Positions 55,302 through 59,109 of a stretch of DNA of 64,000 nt are shown in pieces. The position numbers and the translations under genes were made by a program. Source of the DNA: Escherichia coli (lineage in GTDB: Bacteria > Pseudomonadota > Gammaproteobacteria > Enterobacterales > Enterobacteriaceae); the NCBI RefSeq assembly GCF_003334405.1, contig NZ_QOWM01000018.1; one strand, given 5' to 3'. Numbering within the stretch: position 1 is the first letter of the stretch; every line of letters begins with the position of its first letter. The notes beneath the pieces are model-generated. The model had not been told where the DNA came from and ran no database searches. It saw only the letters and a list, made by a program, of their open reading frames with translations.

Positions 55302-56081
55302 TTATGGAATTCTTTTGAGCATAGACACCGCATCGGACTCAGGCATCGAAAACTGCACCCGGTGCCGTGCAGCCACATCCAGTGCAAACACCTTCGTGTA
55401 GACCTCCGTTGAGCTGATGGACTTATGCCCCATCAGGCTCTGCAGGACCTTCAGCGGTATACCGGCATACAGCATGTGCATCGCATAGGAATGGCGAAAC
55501 GTATGTGGCGTGACCGGAACAGAGAATGTCACACCATCAGCGGCAGCGGCGGCAACCGCTTCCCCAATCCAGGTCCTGACCGTTCTGTCCGTCACTTCCC
55601 AGATCCGCGCTTTCTCTGTCCTGCCTGTTCGTTTATTACGCCGTTCCATGGGGATTTTCAGTGTGGCCACCATCGTCTGCAGCTGGCTGACGTACCAGGC
55701 GTCGGAGAGCGGAACCAGCCGGTGAGTCTGCTGACCGGCGGGCATCCTTCCTGCCGTCCTGGCGGCTTTTTCGGTCCGCTGCTTCAGAGTGGCCAGCTGC
55801 ACAAACGGATACGGAGGCGTGAGCGAAAAATCCCCCCGCGTCAGCGCCAGTGCTTCATTAATGCGTGCACCGGTGTTCCACAGTGTGGCCAGCAGCATCT
55901 TGCGGCGCAGATCCGGGACGTAATGGAGCAGGGCGCTCACTTCAGGGGCCAGCAGGTATTTTGGCAGTTCATCATGAACCATCGACATCTGGCGGAGTGC
56001 CAGCGCTGCCGGATAATCGATGGCAACAGGAAGCTGAGCGGCATCCCGGGCATGGTGTATCGGTGCCGGCAGGTGCTGCAT
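55302..56081 (-). CDS. Tyrosine site-specific recombinase (XerD/ResD-like)
   Basis: C-terminal catalytic region HTFRHSYAMHML...GH...TEVYT; probable start at internal Met near 56081. Confidence 0.8.
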   Translation of the reverse strand: MQHLPAPIHHARDAAQLPVAIDYPAALALRQMSMVHDELPKYLLAPEVSALLHYVPDLRRKMLLATLWNTGARINEALALTRGDFSLTPPYPFVQLATLKQRTEKAARTAGRMPAGQQTHRLVPLSDAWYVSQLQTMVATLKIPMERRNKRTGRTEKARIWEVTDRTVRTWIGEAVAAAAADGVTFSVPVTPHTFRHSYAMHMLYAGIPLKVLQSLMGHKSISSTEVYTKVFALDVAARHRVQFSMPESDAVSMLKRIP

Positions 56082-56082
56082 A

Positions 56083-56496
56083 TCAGTGTTCACTCCACGG
56101 GGAAACGTCGGGCAGGTTTTCCACAACACGGTACTTTCCCGGATAACGGAGCTGGTTACCGCCACGCGTCCAGACGGTGACAACAAAACCCCCTCCCTGG
56201 TTGTTTTCGGGGAGCAGGCGATCGCACTGCTCACTCAGCATGTGGATCACGAACGGCGCATCGCTGCCGTCTTCAAATACCAGTTCCAGCGCATCGCGGC
56301 CGTGCAGCGTTCCCTTACTGATGATGACGTACTCAGCTCCCCGCATCTCCCTGAGTAAATGTTTTGCCGCATCCGGGACAAGCAGCCTGGCTGCGCCGGC
56401 ATTCCAGCTGAGGTAGACATATCCGGCCTGCGCCTGTACAGACTGCCAGTAATCCGTTCTGGCGACAGCCTGACCTTCATTCTCAATAAAAAACAT
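56083..56496 (-). CDS. Hypothetical protein upstream of and coupled to the recombinase
   Basis: ATG with AGGAG SD near 56496; stop abuts recombinase start. Confidence 0.35.
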   Translation of the reverse strand: MFFIENEGQAVARTDYWQSVQAQAGYVYLSWNAGAARLLVPDAAKHLLREMRGAEYVIISKGTLHGRDALELVFEDGSDAPFVIHMLSEQCDRLLPENNQGGGFVVTVWTRGGNQLRYPGKYRVVENLPDVSPWSEH

Positions 56497-56932
56497 GGGT
56501 GACTCCTTTTTTCTTTTCCGGGCAGGGACGGTCATGCGATAACGTCATCCATCATCACTGCCCTTACCGTCACGCCGTCTGATAACATCATGCCGTTATC
56601 ATCATCACCATGATAACAAGCATCCATATAACCACGCCGTTAAATTACCGGAGAACCGTTTCCGTCAGATCCGACTTTCCGGAATATCACAACTTTCCGG
56701 AAGTGTACCACGCTGAGGAAATAATCATATCGCTGTTTTCCGCCCCTGCGCGGCGCATCACAGGTCAGGGAAACAACACAACATATAGTGTCATAAGCAG
56801 CTGAATGTGGCACTACATGTTGTATTTACAGGAGGTAGCGTTGTGCGGAGATAGAGGAAGATCCGTGACCGCCGGAAACCGGATCTGCGCGGAAGAAAAG
56901 ACGCAAATGATATGATAATAAAAAACACACAT

Positions 56933-56992
56933 AAAATCATATCAGATATGATTTTCATCATTGATGATGAAACCATATCTGATATTATCAGA
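56933..56992. promoter_or_regulatory. Operator-like perfect palindromes upstream of the 57064 gene pair
   Basis: AAAATCATATC-a-GATATGATTTT at 56933-56955 and TCTGATA-t-TATCAGA at 56978-56992. Confidence 0.35.
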
Positions 56993-57063
56993 AATCAGGA
57001 GCACACAAATCATGCAGGATATTATTTTTACCTGTCAGAACATTATCAGATGGAGCGTGCAGG

Positions 57064-57321
57064 ATGGATGAAGAAAGGGGGTTTTCACTCAGTTATGAAC
57101 AACTGACCCGGTTTGCGGAAAAACGCATCCGGGAATGCAATCTGGACAGCCAGGGCGCGATTTATCTCTGCGAGTCAGCCAAAGCCGGAGCCGTGCTGAT
57201 CTTCTGGCATGAACTGGCCATAAATGGCTATGCCTCAATGAATGCCATAAAGAGACAAGAGATCATTGACGCCGACTTTCAGCGCCTCAGAAACCTCATC
57301 TGGCCGGAGGATGACAGGTAA
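57064..57321 (+). CDS. Hypothetical protein (85 aa)
   Basis: ORF coupled by ATGA overlap to the next gene. Confidence 0.3.
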   Translation: MDEERGFSLSYEQLTRFAEKRIRECNLDSQGAIYLCESAKAGAVLIFWHELAINGYASMNAIKRQEIIDADFQRLRNLIWPEDDR

Positions 57322-57911
57322 TGACCCAGAGCCGCCGACCGTCGCCACTGCAGCGGAGAGTGCTGATTGTGCTGGCTGCCCTTGATGAAAAACGGCCGGG
57401 CCCCGTGCTGACGCGGGACCTGGAACGGGTGCTGGAGCGAAGCGGGGAAGCCCCGGTCTACGGGCCAAACCTGCGCGCCTCCTGCCGTCGTCTGGAGGAT
57501 GCCGGCTGGCTGCGTACCCTGCGCGCCCCGAACCTGCAGCTGGCAGTGGAGCTGACGGACGCCGGCCGGGCCGTGGCACAGCCTCTGCTGCTGGCAGAAC
57601 AGGACCGCATCCGGGCAGAACAGCGTGCGGCAGAAGTCGTCGTACTGCCGCTGGTCCCGGCAGCAGGTCTGCCCGCAGGCGGCACTTCTGCCACTGATCT
57701 GGCGGTGGAGCTGAACGGCATGACGTATCAGGCCTGCCGTGGGGATTTTGTGGTGCGTCTCGACGGCAGCACCTGTCTGCAGTTATGGAATAAAGAAGGC
57801 AGAGTGGTACGCCTGGAGGGCGATCCGCTGGAAGTGGCGCAGTGGCTGCAGGCCTGTCACGATGCCGGAATGGAGGTTCGTGTACAGGTTAATGAAAGCG
57901 TCACCCCGTAA
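57321..57911 (+). CDS. Hypothetical protein with winged-helix-like N-terminus (196 aa)
   Basis: N-terminal RRVLIVLAALDEK...LTRDLERVLERSG segment resembles a DNA-binding wHTH. Confidence 0.35.
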   Translation: MTQSRRPSPLQRRVLIVLAALDEKRPGPVLTRDLERVLERSGEAPVYGPNLRASCRRLEDAGWLRTLRAPNLQLAVELTDAGRAVAQPLLLAEQDRIRAEQRAAEVVVLPLVPAAGLPAGGTSATDLAVELNGMTYQACRGDFVVRLDGSTCLQLWNKEGRVVRLEGDPLEVAQWLQACHDAGMEVRVQVNESVTP

Positions 57912-58387
57912 AAACATGCCAGCACGGTTTACACGTTATCCCATGGTGGCAGCCGGTTAACTTTCCTGCGCCACCAGTGGAAAGAGGCCATGCACAGTTA
58001 AGTCTTGATGTTAATCTGCGGCTGTTTTTTGCAATGGCAATCATTGTCTGTGGTTACGGCTATGTAATTATTTATATTTTTATAAAAAATACGCTCGTCT
58101 ATATTTTAACGTTGCCTGGGCTTACATGTCTCAGTTCTTTATTTTCTTTCATGGCATTTAAAGATAACAATATGTGGGTTGATTCTCCTGATTTGACGTT
58201 ATCAGTAATAACAGGCTCTTTTGCGGCTACAGTTATCTTTTATATGTTCTATTTTTTGAGTTATTCCTTTTATCGGATGGGGACGGATGAATAGAAAGGC
58301 CGATGACCTGCATTTAAGTAAGCGGCTAACCGTATTGATATTTACTGAGAGCTCAGTTCAACTCTCCAGCGATAACAGATCGCGTTC

Positions 58388-58423
58388 CCTTCCATGCCGC
58401 GCCAGCAGCATGGAAGGCGGCAT
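58388..58423. repeat. 29-bp hairpin-containing repeat, copy 1
   Basis: ATGCCGCGCCAGCAGCATGGAAGGCGGCA, also at 60964-60993 with 1 mismatch. Confidence 0.5.
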
Positions 58424-58515
58424 ATTATCAACCATGAAAAATCACCTGGCGGAAAATTTACTAATTTATGGATTGTGATATTATTAAAGAGTAGAACAAG
58501 CCAGCTGAGGTATTT

Positions 58516-59109
58516 ATGGGAAAAAATCAGGAAGAAAGGAAGCCCCCCATCATTGTGGTGAAAAAACGTCGTACTTTTTCGCCACCTTCCTTATCCGAAA
58601 AAACAGATATTATCGCACCTGCATTTACTGAACAGGCGGCAGAATTCCCCCCCGTCGGAATAAATTCATCTGCCGTCGAAAAACATATCCCCGAAGCACC
58701 AGCCCGGAAGAAGAAAAAGAAAAGACATCGTTTCCCACGTCCCGCCCACTGGACCCGTGAGTATACTCACGAGTGCGTGGAAAAAATAAAGACCCTGTTT
58801 CCTCATCTTCGTGCTGAAGGCGGTGGATTTATTCCCCTGAAAATTGGCATCAGCAATGATATTTCGGCATTTCTGGCAGAAAACCCGGATACAGAACTGT
58901 CCATGGACGAATGGTTCTGTGCAGTGTCCTGCATCACCTCCCGCCGCGTATATCTGCAGCGGACCTCTGTCGCCGGCGTCCCTCGTTATGGGCTGGATGG
59001 TCATCCCGATGGGCAGGTCTCAGAAACTGAAGCACAGAGTGCTGTTCAAAGACTGGCGATAATAGAACAACGGTGGCTCAGGATGAAGGAACGGCAGACT
59101 GAGCAATAA
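58516..59109 (+). CDS. ProQ/FinO-domain RNA chaperone (FopA-like)
   Basis: FPHLRAEGGGFIPLKIGI and YL...G..RYGLDGHPDG match ProQ N-domain motifs (FPHCF...PLKIGI; DLDGNP). Confidence 0.75.
   Translation: MGKNQEERKPPIIVVKKRRTFSPPSLSEKTDIIAPAFTEQAAEFPPVGINSSAVEKHIPEAPARKKKKKRHRFPRPAHWTREYTHECVEKIKTLFPHLRAEGGGFIPLKIGISNDISAFLAENPDTELSMDEWFCAVSCITSRRVYLQRTSVAGVPRYGLDGHPDGQVSETEAQSAVQRLAIIEQRWLRMKERQTEQ

Follow-up and report, generated by a model that had tools for sequence, protein, structure and literature searches.

A candidate self-repressed cassette: the plasmid gene pair ydfA-ydeA behind a phased array of inverted repeats

What is the role of two small, overlapping genes that lie behind conspicuous palindromes on an Escherichia coli plasmid? 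The question is raised by a stretch of 64,000 nucleotides, here called the window. A preliminary description of it, made by eye, placed a coupled pair of genes of no known family between a recombinase and a FinO-like gene and likened the arrangement to an autoregulated module, either a regulatory pair or a toxin–antitoxin. The setting is as described. Upstream is a minus-strand tyrosine recombinase operon (55302–56535), the recombinase gene itself occupying 55302–56234, and downstream is a plus-strand FinO/ProQ-like gene (58516–59109; NCBIfam E ~1e-6). The intergenic region between the recombinase operon and the pair is 528 bp. The two overlapping reading frames are also there. The first, ydfA (57064–57321, plus strand), encodes an acidic protein of 85 residues (pI 4.9) and is preceded by a Shine-Dalgarno GGAG at 57052–57055; the second, ydeA (57321–57911, plus strand), encodes 196 residues and has the Shine-Dalgarno sequence GGAGGA at 57306–57311. 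The ATGA coupling claimed for them has to be corrected. That is, the junction in the window is TAATG, a 1-nt overlap at 57319–57323, and the 4-nt ATGA is found in relatives such as L001.

The names YdfA and YdeA are those given in the sources and originate with the IncI1 plasmids R64 and ColIb-P9. The plasmid genes are unrelated to the ydeA and ydfA of the K-12 chromosome, with which they share only names. Published accounts treat both products as conserved hypotheticals (PMC3438092; PMC6286996), and we found no paper that assigns a function to plasmid YdeA or YdfA.

The palindrome at 56933–56955, AAAATCATATC-A-GATATGATTTT, is indeed perfect over 23 bp, and no perfect palindrome in the window is longer. 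It is the only one with arms of at least 11 nt in the 64 kb, and 30 first-order Markov randomisations produced none. The observation of such a palindrome ahead of a two-gene unit is far beyond chance. A 15-bp palindrome singled out in the same description, TCTGATATTATCAGA, is present at 56978–56992 but, taken alone, is within chance, as 14 perfect palindromes with arms of at least 7 nt occur in the window versus 8 expected. It is found in close relatives only, and its position is shifted by 5 bp relative to site 2 (below), the conserved site that it overlaps.

An inverted repeat of 17 bp, ATCATA-N5-TATGAT, is the unit that recurs. Three copies have their cores at 56936–56952, 56972–56988, and 57009–57025, and a repeat finder returned three 22-nt copies, related to one another, at 56934, 56970, and 57007, with intervals of 36 and 37 nt. 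Candidate operator site 1 (56933–56955) has the core ATCATA-TCAGA-TATGAT, centred at −120 from the ydfA start; site 2 (56970–56992) has the core ACCATA-TCTGA-TATTAT, centred at −84; and site 3 (57007–57028) has the core ATCATG-CAGGA-TATTAT, centred at −47. An operator half-site (site 0), GATATGATAAT, at 56909–56919 is centred at about −156. Its columns are conserved in the alignment, and in L010, L012, L015, L018, L019, and L025 it is a 3-mismatch site 36–37 bp 5′ of site 1. Further ATCAT/ATGAT pentamers make up a 20-bp palindrome, TTTCATCAT-TG-ATGATGAAA, at 56953–56972, of which the TATCAT part alone is conserved in the aligned loci. Allowing up to two mismatches, ATCATA-N5-TATGAT has six matches in 64 kb. 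Three are the sites upstream of ydfA, clustered within 90 bp; the other three each carry two mismatches, so that matches with fewer than two occur in the ydfA cluster only.

The array is conserved in position as well as in sequence. In about 25 related loci the site centres fall at −120/−121, −84/−85, and −47/−48 from the ydfA start, and 40 of the 61 intervals between sites are 36 or 37 bp. An alignment of 18 loci shows conserved sites separated by variable spacers. Loci L007 and L017 each lack exactly one 36–37-bp unit. The perfect palindrome is site 1 in the window but site 2 in L010, L012, L014, L019, and L023. Reading 5′ to 3′, the layout in the ~25 loci is a GATC inverted repeat, the half-site, the three full sites, and a conserved ribosome-binding region. 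The architecture seen earlier, in which operators precede a short gene and a second gene coupled to it, is genuine and is conserved as a unit.

The GATC inverted repeat, AGATCCG-N14-CGGATCT, lies at 56859–56886, contains two Dam GATC sites, and forms the conserved 5′ boundary of the module, with which it travels. Its right arm, CGGATCT, is invariant in 17 of the 18 aligned loci; changes in the left arm are not matched by compensating changes in these loci, and the repeat gives no RNA-structure signal (z −1.5 versus shuffles). A similar CGGATCT element is found 5′ of a YdeA-like gene that has no ydfA, in L033. At the other end, conservation at the nucleotide level, synonymous sites included, extends from about −30 to +42 of ydfA and takes in its Shine-Dalgarno sequence. 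RNAalifold on the conserved −45 to +66 region gave −3.2 kcal/mol and no covariation, the 5′ UTR of ydfA folds no better than shuffles, and an Rfam scan of 56300–58600 gave no match at E ≤ 1.

Several small reading frames in the region were set aside. A 19-codon frame behind AGGAG (57012–57071) was considered as a leader peptide and rejected because its ATG is absent in most relatives. A 64-codon frame over the palindromes (56912–57106) spans both conserved operator sites and variable spacers and was judged spurious. Minus-strand frames inside ydeA (57235–57579 and 57458–57721) are probable artefacts of GC content, at 68–72% G+C.

How do the sites lie relative to transcription? A σ70 promoter is predicted on the plus strand at 56961–56988, with a −35 of TTGATG at 56961–56966, a 16-nt spacer, and an extended −10, TGaTATTAT, at 56980–56988. 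It matches the consensus at 9 of 12 positions plus the TG, and the extended −10, TGATATGAT, is conserved across the aligned loci. Transcription is predicted to start near 56995; for the homologous operon on plasmid pUA1135, BPROM places the start correspondingly, 69 nt 5′ of ydfA (PMC12111858). The −35 hexamer directly adjoins site 1 and is covered by the 20-bp palindrome. Site 2 holds the −10, its right half being the −10 hexamer itself. Site 3 covers the early transcript and 5′ UTR, from about +12 to +33. Candidate sites that cover both the −10 and the early part of the transcript imply repression.

We therefore propose that ydfA-ydeA is a self-repressed cassette in which YdeA represses its own operon and YdfA modulates that repression; we put the probability of this reading at roughly 0.6. 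One feature of the array counts against it. A phasing of 36–37 bp amounts to 3.5 helical turns and does not sit easily with simple side-by-side cooperativity.

The same array can be read as a centromere- or iteron-like site, with the repeats and their binding protein serving partition, incompatibility, or copy control instead of, or besides, transcription. Three to four phased sites 5′ of the binder's own gene recall parC/ParR and tubC/TubR, and loci L017, L018, and L033 adjoin Rep_3-type initiators. We regard such a role as very improbable. No NTPase partner of the ParA, ParM, or TubZ kind is encoded in the operon, which consists of ydfA and ydeA alone; ParA- and ParM-type systems are already nearby in the window and its relatives; and the sites overlap the promoter core. 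In addition, the repZ-rfsF region has been described as variable and dispensable (PMC8004404; deletion in PMC12111858).

A self-repressed cassette calls for a DNA-binding product, and the predicted structure of YdeA offers a candidate. The winged-helix-like N-terminus noticed earlier is borne out by a model built from 23 sequences (pLDDT 87.7). In it, residues 9–78 form a predicted winged helix-turn-helix (wHTH) and residues 80–104 a long helix, followed by a flexible Pro/Ala-rich linker of low confidence and a β-rich C-domain (127–190) of five strands, a helix, and a strand. YdfA is modelled as a three-helix bundle (pLDDT 86.8). Its N-terminal motif FSLSYEQL is strictly conserved and predicted to be unstructured, and its net charge is only mildly acidic.

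The judgement that neither product resembles a known family also held, as Pfam, NCBIfam, and PADLOC gave no significant match. For YdeA, Pfam returned nothing at E ≤ 0.001 and NCBIfam nothing at all; the best Pfam matches, below significance, were AbiEi_4 (i-E 0.073) and PaaX (0.18). The only significant match is that of the YdeA N-terminus to phrog_19460, a phage family of unknown function (1.9e-7). Among the AFDB50 matches listed for YdeA, all are YdeA-family entries. Long relatives of YdeA, of 320–430 residues, carry an extra C-terminal region that matches nothing in Pfam or PDB sequences, and profile searches of Pfam and of PDB sequences with YdfA, the YdeA C-domain, and this extra region gave nothing below E 0.3. 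No relatives by fold were identified for YdfA or for the C-domain, which weighs against the self-repressed cassette. Two apparent leads were discarded. Three hits that suggested an AbrB/MazE-like C-domain (PF04014) proved to be SpoVT::YdeA chimeras, joined at the shared peptide REGDPLE on contigs of less than 900 bp, and were treated as artefacts. P0365, a hit of 1263 residues with 13 stretches, is a low-complexity repeat protein and no relative.

Is the pair a unit in other genomes? Of 5426 complete E. coli genomes, 2130 (39%) carry the module, and 2890 of its 2938 places are on plasmids. By megablast it occurs in at least 5000 plasmid records from Escherichia, Klebsiella, Salmonella, and Shigella, always annotated as two hypothetical proteins. 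The carriers are of IncI, IncK, and IncF types, and the closest plasmid with the whole arrangement types as IncI-gamma/K1. For comparison, scanning a single genome for each species yielded 22 loci, to which others were added from metagenome contigs and from annotated records. Lack of conservation as a pair had been set beforehand as grounds for refuting the two-gene module. By tblastn, and leaving the window out of the count, a YdfA-like reading frame lies directly 5′ of ydeA in 23 of 28 loci; L029 and L035–L039 proved to carry such a frame as well. This ground for refutation thus falls away.

Averaged over all pairs of sequences, the YdeA N-domain is 80% identical, the C-domain 65%, and YdfA 50%. 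Selection on both genes is purifying (dN/dS 0.25 for ydeA, 0.40 for ydfA). When the window is compared with L007, L025, and L037, dS is 0.7–0.8 for ydfA versus 0.07 for ydeA, and L039 displays the converse pattern. Thus ydfA alleles are exchanged independently of ydeA. The window and L025 illustrate this, having the same operators, YdeA proteins that are 96–98% identical, and different ydfA alleles. YdfA identity and YdeA C-domain identity correlate at only 0.29. The distant YdeA-like genes P0293, P0361, and P0381 have no YdfA-like reading frame upstream, and in L033, the locus of P0293, ATCAT-rich repeats together with the CGGATCT element still lie 5′ of the YdeA-like gene. Remnants with a single partner of the pair also occur (H75 and H78).

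These comparisons bear on the choice, left open earlier, between a regulatory pair and a toxin–antitoxin. In a type II toxin–antitoxin, one product would inhibit growth, the other would neutralise it, and their complex would repress through the palindromes. Two small, translationally coupled genes behind palindromes on plasmids have that appearance; the pair is extremely widespread and mosaic, its neighbours include genuine toxin–antitoxin pairs and defence genes, and the AbiEi_4 score reflects a weak N-terminal likeness to the wHTH of an antitoxin. Nevertheless, the evidence against makes this reading quite unlikely. Pfam, NCBIfam, and PADLOC gave no toxin or antitoxin family for either protein, neither product shows a toxin-like fold or motif, and YdfA is a plain three-helix bundle whose model and sequence lack a catalytic signature. 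Alleles recombine freely, with no co-evolution of cognate pairs, and both lone YdeA-like genes with upstream sites of their own and single-partner remnants exist. Neither the 320–430-residue forms of YdeA nor the multi-gene operons (see below) fit. Thus the regulatory pair fits better, and the toxin–antitoxin alternative is disfavoured by the folds, the allele exchange, the relatives without YdfA, and the longer operons. The whole ydfA-ydeA-ibfA-proQ unit can be deleted from pUA1135 (PMC12111858), an observation that is neutral with respect to a toxin–antitoxin.

The divergence of YdfA invites a different proposal, in which YdfA is the payload, acting on a target in the host, a phage, or a rival plasmid, for example to counter defence or to modulate the host, YdeA is its dedicated repressor, and the genes downstream are mere neighbours. 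YdfA is the fastest to diverge, discrete ydfA alleles are swapped between near-identical modules, and an invariant FSLSYEQL that is predicted to be unstructured is what a docking motif would look like. In the abundant ColIb type, moreover, the two-gene operon stands alone. The proposal is unlikely in our estimation. Selection on ydfA is purifying, not diversifying; the mild net charge of YdfA and its lack of similarity, in our searches, to any known anti-defence protein speak against a payload, as do the distant YdeA modules without YdfA. The constancy of the motif may instead be explained by the nucleotide-level conservation of the first 14 codons.

If the cassette is self-repressed, which genes would it control? 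Most likely, ydfA-ydeA opens an operon in which the genes that follow vary from plasmid to plasmid and sometimes serve in phage defence. In the window, ydeA is followed by a reading frame of 105 codons with three predicted transmembrane segments (57977–58294, plus strand) and then by the FinO/ProQ-like gene, which has a promoter-like site of its own at 58457–58484. This type is found in 18 plasmid records. Both genes (57977–59109) are probably co-transcribed cargo, for two reasons: no terminator-like site was found on the plus strand between 56400 and 59300, and in pUA1135, by analogy, RT-PCR shows ydfA-ydeA-ibfA-proQ to be one transcript (PMC12111858). On a Klebsiella IncFII(K) plasmid, ydfA and ydeA are transcribed at similar low levels (PMC6286996).

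Elsewhere the cargo is different. One type has the AAA ATPase IbfA followed by ProQ, and IbfA is the HEC-04 defence system (PMC12111858). L025 has a 350-residue protein of unknown function and then a FinO-like gene. Another type has a DUF6884 protein (PADLOC DpdC, 2e-43) followed by an SNase nuclease with a signal peptide. Klebsiella IncFII plasmids have a 164-residue 'DNA-binding protein', a membrane protein, and Hha, and L033 and L035 have a lipoprotein. That unrelated genes, tightly linked and co-directional, follow ydeA in most architectures supports a cassette with regulated cargo. Two observations count against such a cassette. In the common ColIb type no co-directional cargo follows ydeA, the next gene being a convergent DUF6404 gene, and the cassette there would regulate only itself. 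A separate promoter is also predicted for ibfA, which is functional when cloned by itself (PMC12111858).

The working of a self-repressed cassette can now be sketched. We infer that YdeA is the protein that binds the predicted sites and that its effect is negative. YdeA is the better candidate for the operator binder because its wHTH is the most conserved protein segment and tracks the operators, and because the operators stay constant when ydfA alleles change. A YdeA dimer would bind, through the winged-helix domain, to the three 17-bp inverted repeats and the one half-site. Bound YdeA would block RNA polymerase, holding ydfA, ydeA, and the co-directional genes downstream at a low set level. 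On entry of the plasmid into a cell free of repressor, a burst of expression would follow until repression sets in. YdfA, translated first and coupled to YdeA, more variable, and absent from the distant modules, is most simply taken as an accessory that modulates YdeA, and may act as a co-repressor or an anti-repressor. Its FSLSYEQL peptide perhaps docks onto the acidic C-terminal domain of YdeA. A more ambitious version makes the pair a portable sensor and repressor of enterobacterial plasmids, with swappable YdfA alleles as exchangeable sensor or anti-repressor parts, keeping silent a varied accessory and anti-phage cargo that would be freed on plasmid entry or phage attack, with the YdeA C-domain as a new fold for sensing a ligand or a protein; this extension we hold to be doubtful.

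Repressors of several known kinds invite comparison. The BrxR/CapW proteins are wHTH-WYL-WCX repressors encoded at the 5′ end of varied, often phage-defence operons and autoregulated through inverted repeats that overlap the promoter. YdeA resembles them in its N-terminal winged helix and β-rich C-domain, in its position at the 5′ end of an operon, in the variability of the genes that follow, and in the autoregulation proposed here. It differs in that Pfam finds no WYL or WCX domain in full-length YdeA or the C-domain alignment and no WYL domain in a 417-residue long form, in being much shorter (196 residues), and in being preceded by a small coupled gene. The cargo also differs, as it is defensive in some loci (IbfA/HEC-04, or the DpdC-like protein with the SNase) and is Hha, ProQ, or nothing elsewhere. 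The minimal repressors of the MarR, PadR, and HxlR families (PDB 3df8, 6ez1, 4hqe, and 1tbx) share the predicted winged-helix fold of YdeA, and binding of a dimer to inverted half-sites one helical turn apart is expected by this likeness. In contrast to them, YdeA has no significant family match, an additional C-domain, and a phased array of three sites.

The AbiEi/AbiEii toxin–antitoxin, of the type II/IV kind with a wHTH antitoxin, likewise has a coupled two-gene operon, a wHTH protein with a C-domain, inverted repeats, and a location on plasmids or in defence islands; its negative autoregulation at inverted repeats is what we propose for YdeA. However, no nucleotidyltransferase or other toxin gene is adjacent to ydeA in any locus examined, and the small partner, YdfA, is a helical bundle encoded upstream, with alleles that do not co-evolve with those of ydeA. 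Plasmid autorepressors such as KorA and KorB (IncP) and ArdK (IncN/W) keep accessory genes low in established cells but allow their expression when the plasmid enters a new host (zygotic induction). Unlike theirs, the circuit proposed here would be local, not global, as there is one operator cluster in 64 kb, and the protein families are unrelated.

If YdeA is a repressor, it would set the expression of the genes behind its promoter on clinically important IncI, IncK, and IncF plasmids. The genes so controlled would include those for the abortive-infection ATPase IbfA (HEC-04), the ProQ/FinO-like RNA chaperone, the DpdC-like protein with its secreted nuclease, and Hha-type silencers. Study and engineering would also gain an operator of defined sequence, ATCATA-N5-TATGAT, with a small promoter under tight autoregulation. 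Systems of this kind are commonplace; the proposal is of value in that it would give a role to a very common, unstudied family.

Three protein matches to YdeA, the predicted winged-helix repressor encoded by the second gene of the pair, join a SpoVT/AbrB N-terminus to the YdeA C-terminus (P0477, P0478 and P0389). Each comes from a short ENA contig (<900 bp), and the junction falls at a common peptide, REGDPLE. They are probably assembly chimeras, and they account for a misleading PF04014 annotation. One paper (PMC8477403) lists plasmid ydeA/ydfA under the label "active transporter" and reports an association with persistent ESBL carriage; the label stems from confusion with the K-12 chromosomal ydeA, which bears the same name.

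The 5′ half of ydeA (57300–57700) has a G+C content of 68–72%, against 33% in the gene's own promoter and 34–50% in neighbouring genes. That composition probably explains the long minus-strand ORFs, judged spurious, at 57235–57579 and 57458–57721.

Between the tyrosine recombinase operon and the gene pair, unannotated DNA at 56536–56700 carries GATAAC(G/A)TCAT and ATGCCGTTATC repeats, and is probably the rfsF-type resolution site. The 365-bp region has matches in >3400 plasmid records; among the 10 matches listed, none overlaps an annotated feature. An imperfect long hairpin follows at 56773–56828, with 26-nt arms that are 77% complementary and RNA fold z scores of −2.3 (plus strand) and −2.9 (minus strand). 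It is also present in the related locus L007.

Closer to ydfA, an inverted repeat, AGATCCG-N14-CGGATCT (56859–56886), contains two Dam GATC sites and is followed by a GC-rich stretch. Its right arm is unchanged in 17 of 18 related loci, and the repeat always lies ~45 bp upstream of the first putative operator. No RNA-fold signal was found in it. A further conserved segment spans the final 30 nt of the 5′ UTR together with ydfA codons 1–14 (~57034–57105). Here conservation is at the nucleotide level, synonymous positions included, and holds even among loci with ydfA dS >0.7. RNAalifold found no supported structure in this segment; it could be a joint at which recombination exchanges ydfA alleles, or else a site of binding.

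The DNA downstream of ydeA (57928–58300) holds what is left of the 3′ end of a DUF6404 gene on the minus strand and then an AT-rich insert (33–35% GC) encoding a 105-aa three-TM protein (57977–58294). The exact order ydeA-orf105-FinO is found in 18 plasmid records only. In the related loci L004–L006, L010, L012 and L017 (e.g., L010:7245–8395), ydeA often encodes a long form of 400 aa and overlaps the next gene, a DUF6884 gene whose product matches PADLOC DpdC (2e-43); a SNase-type nuclease with a signal peptide follows, the whole making a four-gene operon. In a Klebsiella IncFII plasmid (L039:5053–6196), the genes co-directional after ydfA-ydeA encode a 164-aa "DNA-binding protein", a 123-aa membrane protein and a Hha-domain protein, an arrangement that suggests nucleoid-silencing genes placed behind the same promoter as ydfA-ydeA.
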